Source of the DNA: an uncultured cyanobacterium
Lineage (GTDB): Bacteria > Cyanobacteriota > Cyanobacteriia > Cyanobacteriales > CAWUOF01
Reading direction: 5' to 3'
NCBI GenBank assembly: GCA_963744145.1
Contig: CAVUSO010000001.1
Coordinates: 2,336,001 to 2,400,000, forward strand
DNA length: 64,000 nt
Part shown: positions 167-14,897 of the stretch, piece by piece
Layout of the letters: each line of letters starts with the position of its first letter
Position numbering within the stretch: position 1 is the stretch's first letter
The notes under the pieces: generated by a model
Databases searched by the model: none
Seen by the model: the letters and a program-made list of their open reading frames with translations, nothing else
Told to the model about the DNA's origin: nothing
Program-made: the position numbers and the translations under genes

Positions 167-469
167 TTATAGTAGTTTCATAGCCAGCACTTGCACAACA
201 GCACTGTGTCCCTGATGAAACAGCCCTTCATGGATTTCTCGCTCAAGTTCTACACTGTGCTTAAATTCTAGTCCTTCTAGTTCCTGCTGAATGGTTGTCA
301 GATCCATCAGCAAATTGGCATTGGGTGGACCTCCAGTTTTGAATTCCAGTTGACGGGGAGTATATGCTTCTAGCACAAACACACCACCCGATCGCAATCC
401 AGAAACCACTTGCCGATGGATACTAGCACGGATAGTTGGTGGTAAATGACAAAAAATCGAGACGATCGC
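167..469 (-). pseudogene. 3' half of an interrupted class I SAM-dependent methyltransferase
   Basis: The frame of ORF 167..409 extends upstream as A-I-V-S-I-F-C-H-L-P-P-T-I-R-A-S-I-H-R-Q-V to 469. This directly continues the N-terminal half at 13539-13828, which ends ...QPNSWD. Confidence 0.9.
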
Positions 470-3400
470 TAATAATTTTTAGTTCTACCGCTAATTAAAT
501 AAGAAGAATTTATCGAAATAGATTAAATTGATTGCCCACTGCATATTAATCAGAATGGTTTCAGTCCCGTTGCCAGGATTCATTATTGAGAAAGCAACTT
601 GACAACCAAGTTGACAAAAACTTTCGCGATAACGTGTTTCAGTCCCGTCGCCGGGATTAAGTATTGAGAAAGTTTTCCTTGAATCAGCAGGGTTTTCTTT
701 ATTGGAGCCATGTTTCAGTCCCGTCGCCGGGATTAAGTATTGAGAAAGCGTAAGTCCCATCGGGTAACATTAGTCCCTCAAGTTTCAGTCCCGTCGCCGG
801 GATTAAGTATTGAGAAAGTAAATATTATCTAAATCTTCCTAAATATTCTTTAGTGTTTCAGTCCCGTCGCCGGGATTAAGTATTGAGAAAGCTGCATCTT
901 TTAATCATGTTTCTAGTCTTTTAGAGTTTCAGTCCCGTCGCCGGGATTAAGTATTGAGAAAGTATCTATATAAACGTAGATGTTATAGTAGGAGATTGTT
1001 TCAGTCCCGTCGCCGGGATTAAGTATTGAGAAAGAAAAAACTAATACATCCAATAGAGCGCCGGCGCAAAGTTTCAGTCCCGTCGCCGGGATTAAGTATT
1101 GAGAAAGCAATGGGAATAAGACAGTCCACACGGTCATGCTAGCTGTTTCAGTCCCGTCGCCGGGATTAAGTATTGAGAAAGCCCCAATAATGGCAATCTC
1201 GCCAATTTGGTTAGTTTCAGTCCCGTTGCCGGGATTAAGTATTGAGAAAGTTGCGGTAGTGAGTGACATACATATCGTTCCAGGTTCTTGTTTCAGTCCC
1301 GTTGCCGGGATTAAGTATTGAGAAAGATCATCATTTTGCAAGTTGCGGTAGTGAGTGACAGTTTCAGTCCCGTTGCCGGGATTAAGTATTGAGAAAGCAA
1401 CCTTCAGCGAAACTTTTAAAACCCCAACCTTTCGGGTTTCAGTCCCGTTGCCGGGATTAAGTATTGAGAAAGGTGTAGCCGGGACTGGGATGGGCTCTGG
1501 CGTTGTGTTTCAGTCCCGTTGCCGGGATTAAGTATTGAGAAAGAGATAATTCCATTTGATTCTCCTTTCTTGGTGAGTTTGTTTCAGTCCCGTTGCCGGG
1601 ATTAAGTATTGAGAAAGAATTGATTTTGCTAAATATTCCAAAGAAACATCAAAGTTTCAGTCCCGTTGCCGGGATTAAGTATTGAGAAAGAGCAGGTAGC
1701 CGATATTCTTATCCCTGCTCTAGAAAAGTTTCAGTCCCGTTGCCGGGATTAAGTATTGAGAAAGCAGCTTTTTTGGGAGAAACTTTAGGGATAGGGATTT
1801 GTTTCAGTCCCGTTGCCGGGATTAAGTATTGAGAAAGTTTCTCTCCCAGAGAAATCGAGATTAAATTGTGTTCAGAGTTTCAGTCCCGTTGCCGGGATTA
1901 AGTATTGAGAAAGTTTGGGACAAATACGTTTCGAGTCTAAATTTGTCTCAGTTTCAGTCCCGTTGCCGGGATTAAGTATTGAGAAAGATTTGCGTATCCC
2001 GCAATAGTTGAAATTGTGCCTGAAGTTGGTTTCAGTCCCGTTGCCGGGATTAAGTATTGAGAAAGTCGATTCGAGATTTCTTAATCTGATAAATAAAATG
2101 TTTCAGTCCCGTTGCCGGGATTAAGTATTGAGAAAGAAGTTGATTTTGAATAGTTCAGTTTAGGAGGTTCAAGTTTCAGTCCCGTTGCCGGGATTAAGTA
2201 TTGAGAAAGCTATGAGAGTCGCATCAAAATCCCAAAAGTCCTATCAACCGTTTCAGTCCCGTTGCCGGGATTAAGTATTGAGAAAGCCCACAGTTTTATA
2301 TAGGTGAACTATCGGAGAAAAGTTTCAGTCCCGTTGCCGGGATTAAGTATTGAGAAAGATATCAGGTTGTCAATCATCCCGGATGATGTAGAAATGAGTT
2401 TCAGTCCCGTTGCCGGGATTAAGTATTGAGAAAGTAGATGAAATATTTGATGAGTCGGATTTCTCCCCCATGTTTCAGTCCCGTTGCCGGGATTAAGTAT
2501 TGAGAAAGAAGTCGGAGCAGCATTAAATTTCAGAGTAGTTTTGGTTTCAGTCCCGTTGCCGGGATTAAGTATTGAGAAAGGAGGATTAAATTATGAATCT
2601 TCCTTCAATGGAAGTCTTGTTTCAGTCCCGTTGCCGGGATTAAGTATTGAGAAAGCCGGGAGTACGCCTTCAGACCAGAGAACCGTCTTTACCCTGTTTC
2701 AGTCCCGTTGCCGGGATTAAGTATTGAGAAAGACCCAAAATAACATTACACAACAGGACAAAACAATGACGTTTCAGTCCCGTTGCCGGGATTAAGTATT
2801 GAGAAAGCTGCCCAATCAGCAATATTGACTATCACTGGTCTGGCGATGTTTCAGTCCCGTTGCCGGGATTAAGTATTGAGAAAGACCTACCTATGAAATT
2901 AGCACCCTTGCGTCGGGTGCGAGTTTCAGTCCCGTTGCCGGGATTAAGTATTGAGAAAGGGGGAAGTTATGTCCGACATCCCAGGGGGTGGCTTAGTTTC
3001 AGTCCCGTTGCCGGGATTAAGTATTGAGAAAGTCCCCTAAAGAAATATTTTCCCCAAAATCGGATAGTTTCAGTCCCGTTGCCGGGATTAAGTATTGAGA
3101 AAGCAGTAAAGCTGTCCAGACTGGACAGTTTTTTCTCGTTTCAGTCCCGTTGCCGGGATTAAGTATTGAGAAAGAAGTCTTGACCGGACAACAACCATGC
3201 TCCTTGATAGTTTCAGTCCCGTTGCCGGGATTAAGTATTGAGAAAGTTGGAGCTGAACTTTAAAGATTGACTTGGCAGTGATTGTTTCAGTCCCGTTGCC
3301 GGGATTAAGTATTGAGAAAGCGGGGGAAACCATCGGGTCAATTTGTGAATGAATGTTTCAGTCCCGTTGCCGGGATTAAGTATTGAGAAAGCGATGAGAT

Positions 3401-5408
3401 TTTCGATGAGTCTGACTTCAGTCCGAGTTTCAGTCCCGTTGCCGGGATTAAGTATTGAGAAAGTCTGCTAATGCCTTGGCTTTTAAAGATTTAATTTCTT
3501 CTGAAGTTTCAGTCCCGTTGCCGGGATTAAGTATTGAGAAAGCAATATTAGCAGACAAAATTTGCCCCGGACAAATGTTTCAGTCCCGTTGCCGGGATTA
3601 AGTATTGAGAAAGGTTTGGTCGTTTTGCTGTTTCTACATACCAACAGGAGTTTCAGTCCCGTTGCCGGGATTAAGTATTGAGAAAGTCCTTGGTTTGCAG
3701 TCCCCATTCCGGTGTCGGTGTTGTTTCAGTCCCGTTGCCGGGATTAAGTATTGAGAAAGCAATCTTGCTCCTCAGAATTTCTTCTGGGATTTTGATGTTT
3801 CAGTCCCGTTGCCGGGATTAAGTATTGAGAAAGCCGTTAGTTGTTGACGCGAATGAATGTTTGGATTATTGTTTCAGTCCCGTTGCCGGGATTAAGTATT
3901 GAGAAAGCTTAGAGTCAAATCCGGCGTGGGAAAATGTGTAGTTTCAGTCCCGTTGCCGGGATTAAGTATTGAGAAAGTGCCATAATGGACAAGGACTTAT
4001 ATAGATAAGTCCCGTTTCAGTCCCGTTGCCGGGATTAAGTATTGAGAAAGCCTCATTAAATAAAAAGGATTTAAAGAACGAGGGTCGTTTCAGTCCCGTT
4101 GCCGGGATTAAGTATTGAGAAAGCAAGGTAATTCCGGAAATTCCTTTACCCCAAGGATGTTTCAGTCCCGTTGCCGGGATTAAGTATTGAGAAAGCAGCA
4201 GGAGCAACAGCTAAGGCAATTTCATCATAATCAATAGTTTCAGTCCCGTTGCCGGGATTAAGTATTGAGAAAGTGGGTATAATTACTGGAATGGCAGTTC
4301 GTGGAATTTTCAGTTTCAGTCCCGTTGCCGGGATTAAGTATTGAGAAAGTATTCTACATATTAAAGTAGAAGAACCTATACCTATACCCATGTTTCAGTC
4401 CCGTTGCCGGGATTAAGTATTGAGAAAGCGGTCAATATTAATCACACGGGAATTACCATCAATAGTTTCAGTCCCGTTGCCGGGATTAAGTATTGAGAAA
4501 GTGTTGCTGATTCAGAATCAGCAAAACGAGGTTCTTTAAGTTTCAGTCCCGTTGCCGGGATTAAGTATTGAGAAAGAATTTTAATCAGCACAATAACCCC
4601 CAAGTAAAAATGTTTCAGTCCCGTTGCCGGGATTAAGTATTGAGAAAGAGGTCAGCAAGGAACTCGATGAGTTCCTGGTGAAGTTGAATGCTTCTTGTTT
4701 CAGTCCCGTTGCCGGGATTAAGTATTGAGAAAGCTCTCTGGCTAGGGATTAGCTATCGAGCATACTTAGGTTTCAGTCCCGTTGCCGGGATTAAGTATTG
4801 AGAAAGTTGTTTTCAAGTCGTCTTTGTTCTTAGAGCCAAAAACTACAGTTTCAGTCCCGTTGCCGGGATTAAGTATTGAGAAAGAACCAGAAAATTTAAC
4901 CCATCAAGAGCGTAATTAATGTTTCAGTCCCGTTGCCGGGATTAAGTATTGAGAAAGGCGACAAATGTTGGGTTAAATATAGCAGCAGGATAAGTTTCAG
5001 TCCCGTTGCCGGGATTAAGTATTGAGAAAGCTGATCTATGGGTGTATATATTAGATTGTTATGGGTTGTTTCAGTCCCGTTGCCGGGATTAAGTATTGAG
5101 AAAGTTGGTTGAGAATGAATTTTTAAAGGAACAAGTACAGAAATGTTTCAGTCCCGTTGCCGGGATTAAGTATTGAGAAAGCGGTGGACATAACAAGCGG
5201 ATGTATTGGCTAAGTCATTGTTTCAGTCCCGTTGCCGGGATTAAGTATTGAGAAAGTCTGTCGAAAAAGACAAGCACTTCGAGAAATCGAAGTTTCAGTC
5301 CCGTTGCCGGGATTAAGTATTGAGAAAGCCTAAAGTTAATATTATAGAAAGAATCTATAAAACATGTTTCAGTCCCGTTGCCGGGATTAAGTATTGAGAA
5401 AGACGATA

Positions 5409-6491
5409 AGTAATTGTACAGAATTATTTACAATAATAACATAATGTGTTAAGGTTGAAGAGTTGAAATTTAAATTTAACTAAAAAAATGATATTTCTAC
5501 GAGAAATTAATCCCCTTTCCGTTAAATTACTAAAGCGAATTTATCATCAAAGCCGACATCACCAGGTGCGTCAAAGAGCTCATTGCCTAATCTTAGCAAA
5601 CGACGGTGTAAAAGTCCCAGAGTTGATGAAAATTTTCAACGTCAGCTCTAAAACAATTTATAATTGGTTTGGGCGATGGGAATCATCTAGTATGGTTGGA
5701 TTATATAATCAATCAGGTAGAGGCTCTAAACCAAAATTTAATTCTGAACAAGAAAACCAAATTAAAGAGTGGACAAAATCCGAACCAAGACAATTAAAAC
5801 AAGTGGTAGAAAAAGCCAAAGAAAAATGGGGAATTGAGGCCAGTACAAAAACAATTAAAAGAATTTTGCAAAAATTTAATATGAGCTGGCATCGGATGCG
5901 TAAAGTGGTAGGAGGAGAACCTGTAGCTACCGTATATCAAGAAAAAAAGCGACAACTAGCAGAATATGAACGATTGGATAAGTTAGGTGAAATTGACCTA
6001 TATTACTTAGATGAATCCGGATTCTCTTTAATTCCTTCTGTGCCATACGCTTGGCAAGATATTGGCGAATATTTTGGGATTCCTAGTCAGCAAAGTAAGC
6101 GTTTAAATGTGTTAGGAATCATGAATAAACGGAATAAATTTGAAGCTTATGTTTCTGAAAAAAGTATCACTGGTGATGTAGTTGCGGCTTGTATTGATAC
6201 TTTCTTTCCTACCGTTGATAAACCCGTGGTAATTGTTACAGATCAAGCATCTATTCATACAGGCAATGCGATTTTTGAAAAACTTGAAGAATGGCAAGAG
6301 CGAAAAATTACTATTTTTGAGTTGCCTACTTATTCTCCCCATCTGAACCTAATTGAAATTTTGTGGAGGTTTATTAAGTATGAATGGATTCCGATAGAAG
6401 CTTATAAAGATTGGCCAACTTTCGTTGCAGCCGTTGAAAAGATTTTGAGAGAATTTGGAGAAAAGTATGTAATTAATTTTGTCTGACTACT
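5409..6491 (+). mobile_element. IS630-family insertion sequence inserted in a CRISPR spacer
   Basis: TA is duplicated at 5407-5408 and 6492-6493. Imperfect terminal inverted repeats: AGTAATTGTACAGAATTATTTACA versus the reverse complement of TGTAATTAATTTTGTCTGACTACT. Removal restores a 37-nt spacer. Confidence 0.92.
5488..6486 (+). CDS. IS630-family transposase (HTH + DDE), apparently intact
   Basis: 332-aa single ORF with N-terminal HTH segments and DDE motifs YYLDESGF, VTDQASIH and YSPHLNLIEILW. Confidence 0.95.
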   Translation: MIFLREINPLSVKLLKRIYHQSRHHQVRQRAHCLILANDGVKVPELMKIFNVSSKTIYNWFGRWESSSMVGLYNQSGRGSKPKFNSEQENQIKEWTKSEPRQLKQVVEKAKEKWGIEASTKTIKRILQKFNMSWHRMRKVVGGEPVATVYQEKKRQLAEYERLDKLGEIDLYYLDESGFSLIPSVPYAWQDIGEYFGIPSQQSKRLNVLGIMNKRNKFEAYVSEKSITGDVVAACIDTFFPTVDKPVVIVTDQASIHTGNAIFEKLEEWQERKITIFELPTYSPHLNLIEILWRFIKYEWIPIEAYKDWPTFVAAVEKILREFGEKYVINFV

Positions 6492-9400
6492 TAATAAGGT
6501 CTCATTATCCTATCTCGTAGGATAGTTTCAGTCCCGTTGCCGGGATTAAGTATTGAGAAAGTACTAATCTAATCTCCAATTCTAATCAATATACACTTAG
6601 TTTCAGTCCCGTTGCCGGGATTAAGTATTGAGAAAGTGGATCATCCAGAGACTGATACTTTTGAGAAAACTCTGAAATGTTTCAGTCCCGTTGCCGGGAT
6701 TAAGTATTGAGAAAGTCGGAGTAAATCCGGAGTATACGCCAATGCTGCTCTAGCAAGGTTTCAGTCCCGTTGCCGGGATTAAGTATTGAGAAAGCGGATT
6801 CCCAATGGCAATTATTGAATAGGTAGCGATCGCATGTTTCAGTCCCGTTGCCGGGATTAAGTATTGAGAAAGTCTGCCATATCAATATCATTTAATTGTT
6901 GATTTAATGCGTTTCAGTCCCGTTGCCGGGATTAAGTATTGAGAAAGCTGACTAAAACAACATAAATTTAATCTGCTGTGAGTTTCAGTCCCGTTGCCGG
7001 GATTAAGTATTGAGAAAGCTTGAATTGTCCGATTATGGCAATTCTTATTATTTGCATGTTTCAGTCCCGTTGCCGGGATTAAGTATTGAGAAAGAGGAAT
7101 TAGATAAGGAATTACGCCAATTACGATCAGGTTTCAGTCCCGTTGCCGGGATTAAGTATTGAGAAAGGTCCTTAATAATTTGGTGAGTGCCCATCAACGA
7201 CCCGGTTTCAGTCCCGTTGCCGGGATTAAGTATTGAGAAAGATACTTAATAAGTTTTTCTTATTAAGTAAAAATGCTTAGGTTTCAGTCCCGTTGCCGGG
7301 ATTAAGTATTGAGAAAGGACCAGACCGAATATTACAAAGTTCGGCAAAACTAGCCCAGGTTTCAGTCCCGTTGCCGGGATTAAGTATTGAGAAAGAAATA
7401 TATTGGCTCAAATTATGGAACTACAGAGAGCATGTTTCAGTCCCGTTGCCGGGATTAAGTATTGAGAAAGCCCAATGGGGGTCATCGACGACAGTTGGGG
7501 CAATCGTTTCAGTCCCGTTGCCGGGATTAAGTATTGAGAAAGAACCTAAGAATTTTAATATCTCTCCTTTTACTTCTTTATAATGTTTCAGTCCCGTTGC
7601 CGGGATTAAGTATTGAGAAAGTGGGGAATCTGACCCCCAACTTTTCCAATAATTTCGTTTCAGTCCCGTTGCCGGGATTAAGTATTGAGAAAGAAGTGAA
7701 CTTTAATACTGCTAACGACCCTAGCGCATTGATTGTTTCAGTCCCGTTGCCGGGATTAAGTATTGAGAAAGCTGGGGTGAATAGGTTTAGGAGCGATTGC
7801 AATCATTTGTTTCAGTCCCGTTGCCGGGATTAAGTATTGAGAAAGTTTATCGCTCTAACTTGGGGCAAAGACAGGAGCAGGTTTCAGTCCCGTTGCCGGG
7901 ATTAAGTATTGAGAAAGCTACCTGTAGATCCAACAAAATTAAATTCTTACCTGTTTCAGTCCCGTTGCCGGGATTAAGTATTGAGAAAGAAATTATGGTC
8001 GAATTATTAACGTTTCAGAATTGGTTTCAGTCCCGTTGCCGGGATTAAGTATTGAGAAAGCTAGCGAGGGGTCAGTAACTTTAGCTAGGGTGATTGGGTT
8101 GTTTCAGTCCCGTTGCCGGGATTAAGTATTGAGAAAAGGACTGCATCATTGGACGCTCTGGGGTCTTTTTGCGTCGTTTCAGTCCCGTTGCCGGGATTAA
8201 GTATTGAGAAAGTAGGTTTTCCTCTTTTACTAGGAGTAGAATTTTTCTTGTTTCAGTCCCGTTGCCGGGATTAAGTATTGAGAAAGTGTAATAAAGTTGG
8301 CCAGATTGATTCCAACCTCTAGTCGCGTTTCAGTCCCGTTGCCGGGATTAAGTATTGAGAAAGTTTAAAGGTAATGCTCGCCCCATCCCCCTCGATTGTT
8401 TCAGTCCCGTTGCCGGGATTAAGTATTGAGAAAGCCACTTGAAATAAAAAAATACCCTCCCATATCAAGTTTCAGTCCCGTTGCCGGGATTAAGTATTGA
8501 GAAAGCTAACGTTAATTCATCATTAGTTTGAGTCGGAATAAGTTTCAGTCCCGTTGCCGGGATTAAGTATTGAGAAAGCAACATTTGATTTATCCACTTA
8601 GGGTATCCCTCCTGGAAGTTTCAGTCCCGTTGCCGGGATTAAGTATTGAGAAAGTTTCTTTTATTTCTCCCTTTGGTTGTAATTTCTGAACCAGGTTTCA
8701 GTCCCGTTGCCGGGATTAAGTATTGAGAAAGGTTTCACTTACGAATTCCTAGAAGGAAATGAAAAAGTTTCAGTCCCGTTGCCGGGATTAAGTATTGAGA
8801 AAGAGCTGAGTTTTTCTTATCCAGCACTTTAGCTTTTAGGTTTCAGTCCCGTTGCCGGGATTAAGTATTGAGAAAGTTGCCAAAATTCTAGATGATCTAA
8901 TCTCATAAAATCAGTTTCAGTCCCGTTGCCGGGATTAAGTATTGAGAAAGTATTTCAAAAATCTCGTTCTGATCAGGGTCTACGTGTTTCAGTCCCGTTG
9001 CCGGGATTAAGTATTGAGAAAGTTTATAGTCCACGGGTTAATTAGACCTATTGGGACTATTGTTTTAAGTTTCAGTCCCGTTGCCGGGATTAAGTATTGA
9101 GAAAGACTTGAGGGGCATTCCCATCACTGTATAAATTTTGCCAGTTTCAGTCCCGTTGCCGGGATTAAGTATTGAGAAAGTTAGCTTGAGCTAAATCAGC
9201 TTGACTGCCTCCACCAGGTTTCAGTCCCGTTGCCGGGATTAAGTATTGAGAAAGTGATGTCGTACTAAATAGTCGTTACATCCCGAAGAAGTTTCAGTCC
9301 CGTTGCCGGGATTAAGTATTGAGAAAGTAGTCCCATCTCCTTGTAAAGAGATTTGAGAGATATTTTGTAAGTTTCAGTCCCGTTGCCGGGATTAAGTATT

Positions 9401-11312
9401 GAGAAAGTTTGGGAAGTGGTCTTTGATGACAAATCTGTCGTCGTTTCAGTCCCGTTGCCGGGATTAAGTATTGAGAAAGTAGAATCATCAATACAACCAC
9501 TAACCGTATAGGGAAGTTTCAGTCCCGTTGCCGGGATTAAGTATTGAGAAAGCCTAGCCAAATAAAACAACAGAGGAAAAACATGAAGATAGTTTCAGTC
9601 CCGTTGCCGGGATTAAGTATTGAGAAAGAAGTACTGTTTATAAATTAGACAACACAAAATTAGTGTAGTTTCAGTCCCGTTGCCGGGATTAAGTATTGAG
9701 AAAGCAGCAGGTGTATCCTGTCCCGAGGATGCTTACGAAGTTTCAGTCCCGTTGCCGGGATTAAGTATTGAGAAAGCTGAGAGCGAGTTCTTTTTGGGCA
9801 TAGTCATCCCAGTAGATTTGTTTCAGTCCCGTTGCCGGGATTAAGTATTGAGAAAGCAATAGGGCTGGGGATAATTTGCTTGAGTGTCCATCCCCTAAGT
9901 TTCAGTCCCGTTGCCGGGATTAAGTATTGAGAAAGCTTTTGCGATCGCAGTAGCTAATCCAGCAGCACGTTTCAGTCCCGTTGCCGGGATTAAGTATTGA
10001 GAAAGTTGCTCCATCAGGAACATTACCCCCTGATTGGTATTATTTCCGGTTTCAGTCCCGTTGCCGGGATTAAGTATTGAGAAAGATAGAAGTTTGACTC
10101 GCAAATTTAGGGGTAAAATAAATGTTTCAGTCCCGTTGCCGGGATTAAGTATTGAGAAAGTTGGAAATAATGTCAATCAATTAATATTATTCAATAAGTT
10201 TCAGTCCCGTTGCCGGGATTAAGTATTGAGAAAGATATTACCAGTACAATCACTGGGGTCCAGGCTACCGCAGGTTTCAGTCCCGTTGCCGGGATTAAGT
10301 ATTGAGAAAGCTGAACTAAGGGCTAGATGGGCGGCAGTGATCGCGGAAAAGTTTCAGTCCCGTTGCCGGGATTAAGTATTGAGAAAGTTCTCAACCAAAG
10401 ATCCTGATACAGGCGCCACCCTGAAGTTTCAGTCCCGTTGCCGGGATTAAGTATTGAGAAAGTTACCAGACTCAGACTTCCGTTGATACTCCTAATACGT
10501 TTCAGTCCCGTTGCCGGGATTAAGTATTGAGAAAGTTGTAAAACTCAACCCATTGGGTATATTGGGCATGTTGATTGCCAAAAGTTTCAGTCCCGTTGCC
10601 GGGATTAAGTATTGAGAAAGAATAAATGAGCTATTCTCGCTAGCCCAATTGCATAGACGTTTCAGTCCCGTTGCCGGGATTAAGTATTGAGAAAGAAGTA
10701 TTTTTATAGTTGACGGTGTAGCCATTTACCGTTTCAGTCCCGTTGCCGGGATTAAGTATTGAGAAAGGAGCTGTAACCCTTACGGCTCTAGCTGACAAAG
10801 ATGGCAAGTTTCAGTCCCGTTGCCGGGATTAAGTATTGAGAAAGTCGCTGATGCTAACTACAGCGGAATCAGTGGACTTAACGTTTCAGTCCCGTTGCCG
10901 GGATTAAGTATTGAGAAAGCTAATGCTTCCCTACCTACCTAATGAGACACTAATACTTCCCGTTTCAGTCCCGTTGCCGGGATTAAGTATTGAGAAAGCG
11001 GCAGCGTCTTTCCGGCGAGATTGCGTTCATTCAATCAATGTTTCAGTCCCGTTGCCGGGATTAAGTATTGAGAAAGCAGTAGTATAATCAAATTAAAATT
11101 ATGTCAATCAACAATGGTTTCAGTCCCGTTGCCGGGATTAAGTATTGAGAAAGTTGCTCTGACGTAGAACCCTTAGTCAATGGATTACAAAAATTTAAGT
11201 TTCAGTCCCGTTGCCGGGATTAAGTATTGAGAAAGCGGGTTATCACTGGACGGCTACGCACCTGATTAATTACAGGTTTCAGTCCCGTTGCCGGGATTAA
11301 GTATTGAGAAAG

Positions 11313-11560
11313 AGCGTGGTCTAGAAGCGTTACTGGGACTAGCTTGAAATAGCAATTTTGGCAGGTCTCCAAAAAAACTTCATTTCAGCGATTGCCCCAA
11401 CTGAAAATTTGCTAGATTTAGACCGGGGTTAGAGCGTAGAACTATTGAATTATCAAGGTTCTAGAGATTTTGGCGGCACCCCCTGGTTTTTCAACCTCGC
11501 TTCGCCTTGCCAAAAAATCTATACAGACACTATATAACACCTTTGCAACTTTGTCACATA
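11313..11560 (-). promoter_or_regulatory. CRISPR leader
   Basis: Non-coding region next to the last, perfectly conserved repeat, at the opposite end from the degenerate repeat. The distal boundary is approximate. Confidence 0.7.
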
Positions 11561-11731
11561 TTTTAGCACTCAAATTTTGCAGAAAAATAATTCAGGTAAT
11601 TTCTTATGGACAATGGCGATCGGATCACCTCTAATCGCTAAATAATACCAGCTTCATAAATTAGCACTACAGATAATATATATAGATCATCTGTAGTCAG
11701 AGTTGGAAGAATTGGTATAACTGGAGAAATA

Positions 11732-11760
11732 TTGACAATAAGTACATATTCGGTCATAAT
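11732..11760 (+). promoter_or_regulatory. Sigma70-type promoter for tnpA
   Basis: TTGACA (11732-11737), a 17-nt spacer, then CATAAT (11755-11760). The tnpA ATG follows 6 nt later. Confidence 0.7.
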
Positions 11761-11766
11761 ATATCT

Positions 11767-12385
11767 ATGACTAAATATGTAACGCCAAATGAAGCAGCTA
11801 ACACTCTCTTGAGTTTGTCTCAGAACCCTTAGAAGATGGGAAGTCGAGGGAAAAATCAATACCGTCAAAACACCCTGTGGTCACAGAAGGTACGACATCG
11901 AAGGGTTCATCAAAAAAGAATCAGCACCAGAAAGTGGACGCGCCACTGTTATCTATGCTCGCGTCTCTACCAGACCTCAACAAGCAGACCTTATGCGACA
12001 AATTGAGCGATTATCAACGCTCTATCCAGGCGCTGAAGTCGTTCAGGAAGTGGGAGGAGGACTTAATCTTAGGCGGAAAGGACTCATCACCCTTTTGGGA
12101 CGAGTTTTGCGTGGCGATATCGCAGTTATTGTGGTTGCCCACAAAGATCGACTCGCCCGATTCGGATTTGATCTTATCGAGTGGTTGTGTGAACAATTTG
12201 ACTGCCAAATCGTGGTTCTCAACCAAGTCAGTCTCTCTCCTCACGCCGAACTCGTTCAAGATATCATCGCAATCCTCCACAGCTTTTCAAGCCGACTTTA
12301 TTCCCTCCGCCGACTTGAAAACCAAATCAAAGAAGAGTTACAAACTGAAACCAAGGCACCAGAAAAACCCGTTAAAACAGCCTAA
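11767..12385 (+). pseudogene. tnpA: IS607-family serine recombinase (TnpA) with a +1 frameshift near codon 15
   Basis: The ATG at 11767 reads MTKYVTPNEAANTL. After a shift near 11805-11811 it continues VCLRTLRRWEVEGKI..TPCGHRRY (MerR-like HTH), then VIYARVST (catalytic Ser motif), VAHKDRLARFGF and ELVQDIIAILHSFSSRLY. Confidence 0.9.
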
Positions 12386-13530
12386 TAAAACTCTGAAAAT
12401 TCGGGTATATCCTGAACCTGCACTGCATCAAAAATGGAAGTCTTGGTTAGCGGCATCTCGTCACTGTTATAACCAAGCGATCGCTGCATTGAAATCAGGT
12501 AAAGAAATAACCAGTGCTTATTCACTGCGGAATTATGTGTTCAGTTTGGACTTACCTGATTGGGTAAAATCTGCCCCAGCACATCCAAAAGAGAATGCAA
12601 TTTTTGATGCTTGGGATGCAAGTAAACAAGCTCAGTCGCAAGGAGGTGAAGCAAGTTTCAGAAATTGTAGACAACCAGTCCAGGCGATTAAGTTTCATCA
12701 AGTTAACTTTAACGGGAAAACTTGGTTTCCTTCTCTGGTTAAAGGACTTAGTTTTCAGGCTAGCGAACCATTACAAAAAACTGAATTTGCGACTCAATTA
12801 GTCAGAGATAGAAAGCGGTGGTTTGCTTGTATTCCCATCCAGGCTGAAATTAATGAACCAAAACAATTAGACCAAGTAATTGCTTTAGATCCGGGGGTAA
12901 GAACTTTTCTAACTGGATATGATGGTGATTCATACTTAGAGTTTGGTAAGGCAGACATTGGACGCATTCAAAGATTGTGTTCTCACCTTGACCAACTCAT
13001 AGGACGCGCCTCGAAATCTGGTCGAAAACAAAAACGTCGGATGTACCAAGCCGCGAATCGTTTACGCATTAGAATTCGCAATTTGGTAGATGAATGTCAT
13101 AAACAAGTTGCTAATTACCTGACAACTCAGTACAAGGTGATTTTTCTGCCTAAGTTTGAAACTTCACAAATGGTAATTAAGTCCGGACGTCCGACTTCAT
13201 ACTAAAACAGCGAGACAGATGCTTACTTGGGCGCATTACCGATTTAAGTGTCATCTCAAACAAGTCGCTCAACAGCGTGGTGTTGTCGTCATTGATGTGA
13301 ATGAATCTTACACCTCAAAAACTTGTACTAGCTGCGGATACCAGCACCACCAATTAGGCGGGTCGAAAACGTTTAAATGCCCCCATTGTGGTCATATTCA
13401 TGATCGCGACTGGGGGGGCGCTCGGAACATTATGATCCGGGCTTTGAGGGACGGCTCCTTTGCTTTGGCGATCACGAGCGAAAGCATTGCTGTCGCGTAT
13501 GCTCTATTTGTCCAGAGTTGTACAGCGTAA
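11877..13530 (+). pseudogene. tnpB: IS607-associated TnpB (RNA-guided nuclease family) with a +1 frameshift at ~13191; true start uncertain
   Basis: Motifs include KTLKIRVYP, RuvC-I IALDPGVRTF, VNESYTSKTCTSCG and CPHCG (Zn finger), and DRDWGGARNI. ORFs 11877..13205 and 13219..13530 join if one C is removed (SGR-RLHTKTARQMLTWAHYRF). Confidence 0.9.
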
Positions 13531-13538
13531 TACCGTCA

Positions 13539-13828
13539 GCATCCCAAGAATTGGGTTGAATGACAAATTCAGCCAGATCTGCCACAATCGTTTCTATCTC
13601 CACAGAACGCTCTGCTGCTAGTTTGCGAGCTTTCTCCAAGCCTATAGAAGAACCATCGACAGCCGTAACCTGACATCCTTGCTGTGCTAGATATACAGCA
13701 TTCCTACCTTCTCCTTCGGCTAGAGAAAGAACATGACCTTTGGGAATCTGTTGGATGACTTGGACTAAAAAGTCGTTGGGATGCTTACCATAGGCATACT
13801 CAGTCTGGCTATATCGTTCATTCCACAT
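13539..13828 (-). pseudogene. 5' half of the interrupted class I SAM-dependent methyltransferase
   Basis: MWNERYSQTEYAYG..VLSLAEGEGRNAVYLA..VTAVD covers SAM-binding motifs I/II. The plausible reading stops at ...PNSWDA, and the remainder of ORF 13472..13828 is read from the transposon end. Confidence 0.92.
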
Positions 13829-13892
13829 AATTTACTAAAACGCTGTATTGTTATAACAAATGATTAGGAATACGGTAAAATTTTTACCCGAC

Positions 13893-14897
13893 CTAAATAT
13901 CTTCAACGACTTTGCCTCGGAACACTACATAGTTGTAGATGTTGTAGAACAACATAATGGGAATCAGAAAGCCAATAAAGATGAGCATAAATACTAACGC
14001 ACTAGGAGAGGCTGCGGCTTGATAGATGGTGATTTGGGTGGGGATGATGTAAGGAAAGACGATCAGTCCTAATCCAATAAAGGTAAGCAAGAAGATCAGA
14101 ATCGTCCAGATCAATGGTGTGTTTTCCTCCTCCCGGTTGAGACTTGTCCACAGCAGCCACACCAGTACCACACCCAACACCGGAATCATGGCAAAGATAT
14201 AAATTAAAGGCTGGCTAAATAACCGAGTTCGCGCTGCTTCATAGACGATCGGAGTAGCGATCGTGATTAAAGTCGCACCAATAAAGGTGGTGATAGTGGC
14301 AATTTTAGCGGTGCGAAAGTGGGTTTTTTGCAATTCTCCGTCAGTTTTCAAAATTAGGTAGGTAGAACCAATTAAGACATAGCCCTGGATTAAAGTCAGT
14401 GCTACTAATAGCGATCGCCAGTCCAACCAATCCCAGGTGGAGCCAATAAAGTGACCTGTCTGATCCACCGCGATCCCTTCAATTACACTACCAAGAGCAA
14501 AACCCTGTCCTAGGGCAGCAATAAAACTACCAATTCCAAAAGCAAAATTCCACAGCAACTTGCGATCGGAATGTTCTCGAAATTCAAAGGCGACTGCTCG
14601 AAAAATCAGCCCAAAAATCATGAGGAAAATCGGAATATACAAGGCACTGAGGATGGTGCTATAAGCCAAGGGAAATGCTCCAAATAAGGCTCCTCCCATT
14701 AGCACTAACCAAGTTTCGTTAGCATCCCAAATATTACCCAAACTGGTCATCAAAATAGTGCGGCGTTTTTCGTCTGAACTGGTCAGAGACAGGATGCCAA
14801 CTCCCAGGTCAAAACCATCGAGCATGACATACAGAAATAGGAATAACGCCAAAATTACAAACCAAACTTGAGGCAAAAAATGTAGTAGTGCGTCCAT
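13893..14897 (-). CDS. cydB: Cytochrome bd ubiquinol oxidase subunit II
   Basis: Motifs YVMLDGFDLGVG and WDANETWLV; multi-TM protein following cydA. Confidence 0.95.
   Translation of the reverse strand: MDALLHFLPQVWFVILALFLFLYVMLDGFDLGVGILSLTSSDEKRRTILMTSLGNIWDANETWLVLMGGALFGAFPLAYSTILSALYIPIFLMIFGLIFRAVAFEFREHSDRKLLWNFAFGIGSFIAALGQGFALGSVIEGIAVDQTGHFIGSTWDWLDWRSLLVALTLIQGYVLIGSTYLILKTDGELQKTHFRTAKIATITTFIGATLITIATPIVYEAARTRLFSQPLIYIFAMIPVLGVVLVWLLWTSLNREEENTPLIWTILIFLLTFIGLGLIVFPYIIPTQITIYQAAASPSALVFMLIFIGFLIPIMLFYNIYNYVVFRGKVVEDI

Follow-up and report, generated by a model that had tools for sequence, protein, structure and literature searches.

In this study, we report the analysis of a 64,000-nucleotide stretch of DNA from an uncultured cyanobacterium (contig CAVUSO010000001.1, positions 2,336,001 to 2,400,000 of the forward strand; hereafter the window), in which an insertion sequence (IS) of the IS607 family, carrying a TnpB nuclease gene of the cyanobacterial pro-Fanzor clade, abuts the leader of a type I-D array of clustered regularly interspaced short palindromic repeats (CRISPR). 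Both were found within a single insertion of 13,071 bp (470-13540) that consists of a trailer flank, the array, its leader and the IS607 element, with the dinucleotide GC at each junction. With a probability of roughly 0.7, we consider that transposon and array form one block, and that the tie between them is shared mobility and not RNA.

The limits of the block were set by the gene that it interrupts, and positions 470-13540 are regarded as one insertion because the two halves of a single methyltransferase gene flank them. The C-terminal half of this gene, which encodes a TehB-like S-adenosylmethionine methyltransferase, is located at 173-469 on the - strand, reading from AIVSIFCHLP to the stop codon, where residues 126-224 of the L093 ortholog match 469..173 by tblastn (E 2e-28). 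The N-terminal half occupies 13541-13828 on the same strand (Pfam Methyltransf_25 and TehB); residues 30-124 of the ortholog match 13828..13544 (tblastn E 2e-36), and its first bases, ATCCCAAGAATTGGG, coincide with the would-be guide of the transposon RNA described below. When the halves are joined, the protein reads PNSWD-A-IVSIFCHLP, against PQSWQ-G-VVSIFCHLP in the ortholog. The left junction (GACGATC-GC-TAATAAT, with the GC at 468-469) restores the methyltransferase reading when joined to the right flank, the right junction is ACCGTCA-GC-ATCCCAAG, and the inner junction, from the leader flank into the IS, is ATGGACAATG-GC-GATCGG. On the right, the block ends precisely where the IS itself ends; the remaining 11,146 bp segment fills the interval from the flank GC to the first base of the IS left end precisely, neither side having lost a base. 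An 88 bp trailer flank (470-557) separates the left junction from the terminal degenerate repeat of the array; it has no likeness to an IS607 left end, and its stretch 499-555 matches one other place in the genome at 82%. These comparisons establish the identity of the parts, the exact split of the gene and the boundaries of the block.

The IS607 element is 1925 bp long (11616-13540) and no further copies of it were found in the genome; DNA homology to the loci of 27 relatives covers approximately 11718-13540. Its first gene, tnpA (11767-12385, + strand), encodes an IS607 serine recombinase (Pfam Resolvase, 1.7e-17; NCBIfam NF033518, 180 bits against a cut-off of 110), and carries in the assembly one extra base at 11808, which shifts the frame in the helix-turn-helix region. 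The left end (11616-11766, + strand) starts with GC (11616-11617) followed by GATCGGATCACCTCTAATCGCTAA, is split after its head (11616-11641) by a 75 bp insertion, and resumes with TGGAGAAATATTGACAA. The inserted sequence (11642-11716) is a dispersed repeat with TACCA...TGGTA ends, resembling a miniature inverted-repeat transposable element (MITE), and the genome contains 29 other matches to the repeat family of 11640-11722. When a profile of the left end was made from 18 relatives, it matched the window at 11616-11645 (E 5e-6) and at 11718-11749. Seven Heteroscytonema loci (L014-L019, L038), which diverge exactly outside the IS607 ends, gave the left end as GC-GATCGG...CCTCTAAT...TGGACAA and the right end as ACACCGTCA-GC, corresponding to ACCGTCA-GC at 13540 in the window. 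Among 26 insertions, the left dinucleotide was GC in 16 of the 25 that could be read, and the right one was GC in 18, GG in 5 and unreadable in 3; unequal dinucleotides at the two ends have also been observed experimentally for another IS607 element (PMC10690162). The left flanks of the insertions showed a weak purine preference at -3 and -4 only. The element thus has the conserved ends, matching 2 bp core and lack of target duplication by which IS607 elements are recognised.

Approximately ten short non-autonomous elements with a 21 nt head identical to the IS607 left end were also present in the genome (for example at G000:C1 98322, 3812948, 7021833, 4139946 and 5666128, with further sites at 3192624, 3491390, 6261470 and 2284098), with ACCGTCA-CC as the terminus of five of them. 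A type of about 150 bp has this terminus, which is like the right end of the IS. The short elements are possible MITEs that such a TnpA mobilises, and since they carry the IS607 left-end head, a TnpA of this sort appears to have been active in the lineage.

The CRISPR array (558-11312, - strand) comprises 130 repeats of 37 nt, where 0 would be expected by chance, and 129 spacers, with its degenerate, oldest repeats at the low-coordinate end. The sequence at 11313-11602 (- strand) was identified as the leader because it resembles the sequences located just upstream of the two other arrays of this genome with a common repeat; its identity is 88% to the flank of array A (291 aligned columns) and 85% to the flank between the cas genes and array C (204 bp). 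Given where this leader lies, the window array (array B) has the - strand as its reading strand and points away from the IS; this orientation relies on the leader and array C, the Rfam CRISPR-DR matches being on both strands and uninformative. The leader faces the IS607 left end, which is 303 bp from the last repeat. The repeats of the three arrays are 1-2 changes apart, array A having 212 repeats (G000:C1:860258-877175), array C 163 (C1:4811439-4823631) and array B 130. Array C follows a complete type I-D operon (cas3', cas10d/csc3, csc2, csc1, cas6, cas4 and cas1d), which is 2.46 Mb from the window array. No cas genes were found near the window array, in the 16 window open reading frames (ORFs) and the four ORFs in the 12 kb to its left, nor beside array A among the ORFs scanned. 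The window array is therefore assigned to type I-D by its common repeat and leader, yet is an orphan: it has the same 37 nt repeat and leader as the cas-adjacent array, but has no adjacent cas genes and sits in a disrupted gene together with an IS607 element. Comparison of its spacers with the rest of the genome, including the IS, gave no match outside the arrays. Two further features belong to these arrays: an IS630-type element (5403-6524; ORF 5488-6486, DDE_3 transposase) lies between two repeats of the window array, and a histidine-kinase gene ends within the terminal repeat remnant of array A.

A block of this composition could be an artefact, in which the assembly misplaced one of three near-identical arrays and the 13 kb block is unreal, and both the near-identity of the repeats and the presence of at least one probable single-base error in the assembly would be in keeping with it. 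Against this, a variant private to array B is seen in its repeats (TTAAT versus TGAAT in arrays A and C), its 129 spacers are unique and not shared collinearly (the three arrays have 13 short pairwise spacer matches, none of them collinear), and both array ends continue into unique sequence. In addition, contigs from two public runs, X1 and X3, were compared with the window. An X3 contig identical over 11602-11752 backs the junction of leader, left end and MITE, and an X1 contig of 1083 nt, which crosses 13267-13900 with no difference, backs the junction of the right end with the methyltransferase gene. Misassembly is therefore considered very improbable.

The tnpB gene (12315-13530, + strand) was identified by Pfam matches, motifs and alignment with relatives. 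In the assembly it is coded in two + strand frames, 12315-13205 and 13177-13530, and, in a comparison with six relatives, one extra base at 13190 is the sole indel of the gene that is private to the window. The first frame contains KTLKIRVYPEP and, further on, IALDPGVRTF, and ends with YKVIFLPKFETSQMVIKSGRPTSY and a stop; the second includes RLHTKTARQMLTW, VIDVNESYTSKTCTSCG and CPHCGHIHDRDWGGARNIMIRAL, and the homologs run uninterrupted through the break as MVVKSKRKLHTKTARQ. Five contigs of run X1, which is possibly the sample behind the assembly, were identical to the window over 11850-12020, 12329-12680, 12653-12833, 12832-13288 and 13267-13900, except at 13190, where the only contig that covers the position (depth 4.7) lacks the extra base and so restores the tnpB frame; position 11808 is outside the contigs that were compared. 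Because this otherwise matching contig lacks the base, the tnpB frameshift, which is present in the assembly, is regarded as doubtful and may be an assembly error or a polymorphism. Other single-base indel errors are possible in this assembly.

The first part of the protein matched Pfam OrfB_IS605 and HTH_OrfB_IS605, and the second part matched Cas12f1-like_TNB (2e-21). The RuvC-I motif is IALDPGVRTF (12879-12908, with the DPG codons at 12888-12896), VIFLPKF (13137-13157) stands in the place of the canonical RuvC-II motif, and VNESYTSKTC (13297-13326) contains an alternative glutamate (Ealt; codon 13303-13305) just ahead of a zinc finger (13324-13389). This glutamate is six residues ahead of the first CxxC (E-SYTSKT-CTSC, 13303-13335), and RuvC-III is DRDWGGARNI (13402-13431), with its D at 13402. 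According to Yoon et al. 2023 (PMC10711439), pro-Fanzors are characterised by DPG in RuvC-I and by a glutamate, six residues ahead of the zinc finger, that replaces the canonical one; they are summarised by the expression DPGx(120-160)ExxxxxxCxxCx(12-18)CxxCx(4-8)D, and are mostly cyanobacterial and linked to IS607. The window TnpB, read through with X at the break, matched the full expression, as did 101 of 120 homologs, and its DPG-to-E spacing is about 135; the 19 homologs that did not match include the frameshifted record of the window itself and eight sequences of at most 302 residues. No other ORF of at least 250 residues in the genome matched the expression. Of 26 TNB-domain matches in the genome, 17 of the 25 other than the window TnpB were used as a canonical comparison set, eight near-copies, short or broken sequences being omitted, and neither DPG nor the alternative glutamate occurred in any of the 17. 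Their RuvC-I motif is DLG, DMG, DIG or DHG, against DPG in the window; the canonical RuvC-II column holds E in them (vYEDL, AVEDL, HIEDL) and P in the window TnpB, whereas the column ahead of the zinc finger holds P or R in them and E in the window TnpB.

In a quick maximum likelihood tree of 52 rows, which has no named Fanzor or Cas12 rows, the window TnpB was placed inside a cyanobacterial clade with DPG and Ealt (SH-aLRT 100, 96 and 97). This clade is sister, with a support of 90, to 16 unnamed IMG/VR viral rows on long branches, some of them from metagenome-assembled genomes of giant viruses, and all 17 tested canonical TnpBs of the genome fell outside it. The best PDB match of the homolog P0003 was L79 of mimivirus (9b0l, 5e-22), ahead of ISDra2 TnpB (3e-9). 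L79, a Fanzor2-type protein of Acanthamoeba polyphaga mimivirus, has DPG and NE-x-TxKTC-xxCG in common with the window protein, but is at most about 30% identical to it and, unlike this bacterial protein, is viral, with 520 residues and a lysine-rich N-terminal extension. The signature, the IS607 TnpA partner, the placement in the quick tree and the closest solved relative together support, at the level of sequence, the assignment of this TnpB to the pro-Fanzor type. A preliminary description of the locus, made from the letters of the window, had proposed this class, with a relocated glutamate, on the basis of the four motifs IALDPGVRTF, VIFLPKF, VNESYTSKTC and DRDWGGARNI; all four are present where it had placed them, the class is borne out by the evidence above, and the clustering with canonical IS605 TnpBs that would have contradicted it was not seen. 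The protein shares DPG, Ealt, the full signature, an IS607 serine recombinase and cyanobacterial relatives with the pro-Fanzor TnpBs described in PMC10711439, and differs from them in no feature of the protein; what sets the window copy apart is that it shares its insertion block with a CRISPR array, and the phrase 'CRISPR array' is absent from the main text of that paper. As a further member of a clade that has already been described as the likely bacterial source of the eukaryotic Fanzors, the protein itself adds little.

A reRNA (omega-RNA) scaffold was predicted at 13357-13540 (+ strand); it overlaps tnpB at the 3' end of the gene and stops at the right end of the IS (ACCGTCA-GC), a boundary that was set from the 26 independent insertions. 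Folding of the last 260 bases of 21 distinct elements with RNAalifold gave a consensus of 51 predicted pairs, 14 of them with compensatory changes, including helices at 13420-13442 and 13494-13527. Since the structure overlaps coding sequence, it is the compensatory changes, and not conservation alone, that count in favour of a reRNA. In ISXfa1 the first flanking base forms part of the scaffold of the reRNA (PMC10711439), and by analogy the guide of the window reRNA would begin at 13541, after the GC crossover dinucleotide, with ATCCCAAG. An Rfam scan of 10800-14000 (E up to 1) gave no guide-RNA family and only weak CRISPR-DR matches on both strands, below the gathering scores. By analogy with other IS607 TnpBs, an intact window TnpB would carry out RNA-guided cleavage, in which the reRNA stemming from the 3' end of the tnpB gene would be the bound RNA, the right flank would supply the guide and the empty site would be the target. 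The preliminary description had likewise placed an omega-RNA over the 3' end of the gene, in agreement with the covarying structure, and had taken the right flank for the guide and for an empty methyltransferase site, the latter being confirmed by the alignment of the flank to the ortholog. The start of the guide has to be moved, to ATCCCAAG in place of GCATCC, following ISXfa1 (PMC10711439), and the left flank GACGATC that it quoted does exist, but at 461-467, on the far side of the array.

The same description had seen in this locus a TnpB physically linked to a CRISPR array, of the kind thought to precede type V systems. The link itself proved tighter than adjacency, the two being parts of one insertion block; the reading as a type V precursor was not supported. 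If the pair were en route to type V, the TnpB could or would come to use the neighbouring CRISPR RNAs, and the distance of only 303 bp between the left end and the first repeat, together with the common insertion, would suit such a course; insertion of a tnpB near a pre-existing array has been described as a route to Cas12 that cannot be ruled out (PMC10691335). One relative also has an array beside its gene: on a scaffold of Arthrospira platensis PCC 7345, an array of 23 repeats, whose unit is a different one of 35-36 nt (L043:11576-13160), is located about 440 bp downstream of a pro-Fanzor tnpB. However, the window array is of type I-D, with its own leader and a cas operon elsewhere, and lies upstream of tnpA and tnpB on the opposite strand, whereas the arrays conserved with Cas12 lie downstream of the nuclease gene (PMC10691335). 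No similarity was found between the repeat and the reRNA or an anti-repeat; in both orientations of the comparison of the repeat with the IS and reRNA, the best local score was 10, against a mean of 10.6 for shuffled repeats, and 260 of 300 shuffles reached 10. The reRNA, in turn, is conserved with covariation.

The association is also not conserved among relatives. A scan of 80 relatives' loci, with flanks of up to 10 kb and in many cases less, flagged three, of which one is a true array (L043) and two are protein-coding repeats, so that 79 of the 80 have no array in the fetched flanks; none has the leader or repeat of the window, and no match to its trailer flank was found in these loci either. 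Given that the three arrays of the genome with 10 kb on each side cover about 1.3% of it, one array-linked locus in 80 is at chance level. A downstream co-oriented array, a repeat related to a guide scaffold or anti-repeat, and an array association conserved in relatives, as would be looked for in a type V system, are thus all lacking here. With the type V systems that arose from TnpB (Cas12f and V-U; PMC10691335) the window locus shares a gene of a TnpB-family nuclease near a CRISPR array; there a downstream array is conserved together with the nuclease, while the window has a type I-D array that lies upstream on the opposite strand and lacks conservation among relatives. No functional link between TnpB and array was found in these sequences, nothing suggests that the nuclease uses the array RNAs, and we give almost no credence to a course towards type V. 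The array would instead be transcribed from its own leader on the other strand, and the I-D Cas proteins that serve it would act in trans, from genes 2.46 Mb distant.

With respect to the formation of the block, the IS607 TnpA, recombining at its 2 bp core, would have made the outer junctions; TnpA is the likely maker because each junction carries the crossover-core dinucleotide of the clade. Two courses of events may be envisaged. In the first, TnpA would have used the true right end and a surrogate left site, producing a circle of array plus IS that integrated at the GC of the methyltransferase gene. In the second, the IS would already have resided in this gene, and a circle carrying the array would have integrated at the GC of the left junction. 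Both fit, and the data do not separate them. In keeping with the first course, the oldest spacer (595-635) holds, at 599-617, TTGACAACCAAGTTGACAA, which is like the paired TGGACAA of IS607 left ends. This TTGACAA-N5-TTGACAA pair is the sole hint of a surrogate site; the pattern has one occurrence in the window and 17 in the chromosome, and it was noticed before it was counted, so that it is a post hoc observation. A likeness between ATCGCTAATAAT at the outer junction and ATCGCTAAATAAT of the left end was dropped, as the left-end stretch spans the point of the later MITE insertion. The joint proposition, that the IS607 element captured or carried a leader-bearing array as an 11 kb cargo through TnpA acting at GC cores and that, separately, its tnpB region is dual-coding as described below, is a tentative one, which we rate as plausible but short of probable.

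Alternatively, the block may have arisen from two unrelated events, an insertion of IS607 and a later arrival of array and leader without TnpA, by break repair or illegitimate recombination, the GC being chance microhomology. Such recombination would have taken place at the CGATCG sequences of the target (ACGATCGC) and of the left-end head (GCGATCGG), each of which is similar to HIP1, a palindrome common in cyanobacteria. This explanation would account for an outer junction without left-end-like sequence, where the IS607 left-end profile had no match between 440 and 600 at a cut-off as loose as E 1000. Since both A and B are orphan I-D copies, at least two movements of arrays have occurred in this genome, and beside array A no IS607 element was noticed. 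The precise bounding of the 11,146 bp segment, with no loss of bases, is on the other hand what site-specific recombination should produce and is unlikely from break repair, and we regard two independent events as unlikely, though far from negligible.

Several observations weigh against a common mobility of array and IS. The outer left junction has no left-end likeness, so that movement of the whole block needs an aberrant or surrogate site, and identity of two bases at a junction is expected by chance in about 1 of 16 cases. The support from public contigs extends to the right-end and leader/left-end junctions and not to the outer left one. As assembled, each of the two IS genes is frameshifted and 75 bp interrupt the left end, so that the element may be inactive now; the frameshift at 13190 is contradicted by one low-depth contig only. 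The clade placement comes from the quick tree, with its long-branched viral rows and without named Fanzor or Cas12 rows. Finally, neither an empty or donor site nor a second copy of the block was found, and the order of events cannot be read: the exact 34 nt methyltransferase flank had 0 matches in genome_contigs and 0 in metagenome_contigs; across the genomes of 30 relatives the best methyltransferase ortholog is 64% identical and intact, and none of these relatives is near enough to show an empty site; and a search for a donor or paralogous site, using the sequence that lies upstream of the leader in arrays A and C, gave only a dispersed repeat.

Comparison of the relatives' elements also revealed a tnpB frame that extends without a stop some 200 codons upstream of KIRVYP; an ATG lies near -201, and the resulting ORF of 577 residues overlaps the whole of tnpA in another frame (for example L013:9440-11173 and L014:9476-11209). 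In the window the tnpB frame is open upstream to about 11811 (region ~11789-13530). Over 190 upstream codons in 49 distinct loci (L012-L091), the tnpB frame was free of stops in 33, whereas the third frame was never stop-free and had a mean of 10.4 stops. Third codon positions vary at 0.25 in tnpA against 0.49 in the tnpB core, that is, at half the rate. A Pfam search with the upstream tnpB extension gave no match. This open frame suggests a dual-coding region and a long TnpB form of approximately 577 residues. The ORFs of IS607 elements are described only as partly overlapping or separate (PMC9956272), and the word 'overlap' is absent from the main text of PMC10711439; translation of the tnpB frame that runs through tnpA, if it occurs, would add a feature not yet reported for pro-Fanzor elements.

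Among characterised members of the family, ISXfa1 and the IStron of Clostridium botulinum (PMC10711439, PMC10690162) have a serine TnpA, a 2 bp core, a circular intermediate and no target duplication, as in the IS607 family to which the window element belongs, and their reRNA ends at the right end with a guide taken from the right flank, the same layout as predicted here. Their core is GG, while that of the window clade is mostly GC and sometimes GG.

The interest of this locus is that a whole array with its leader is found inside the same precisely bounded insertion as a TnpB-bearing IS607 element, and the value of following it up lies in the 13 kb block and not in the protein. With an array as its cargo, an IS607 element would exemplify in nature how a TnpB transposon and a CRISPR array become a single mobile unit. 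If TnpA made the block, serine-recombinase transposons can move arrays and unite TnpB and array in a single mobile unit; type V systems have been proposed to originate by two routes, of which this would be one, and it would also help to explain how orphan arrays multiply and spread in cyanobacterial genomes.

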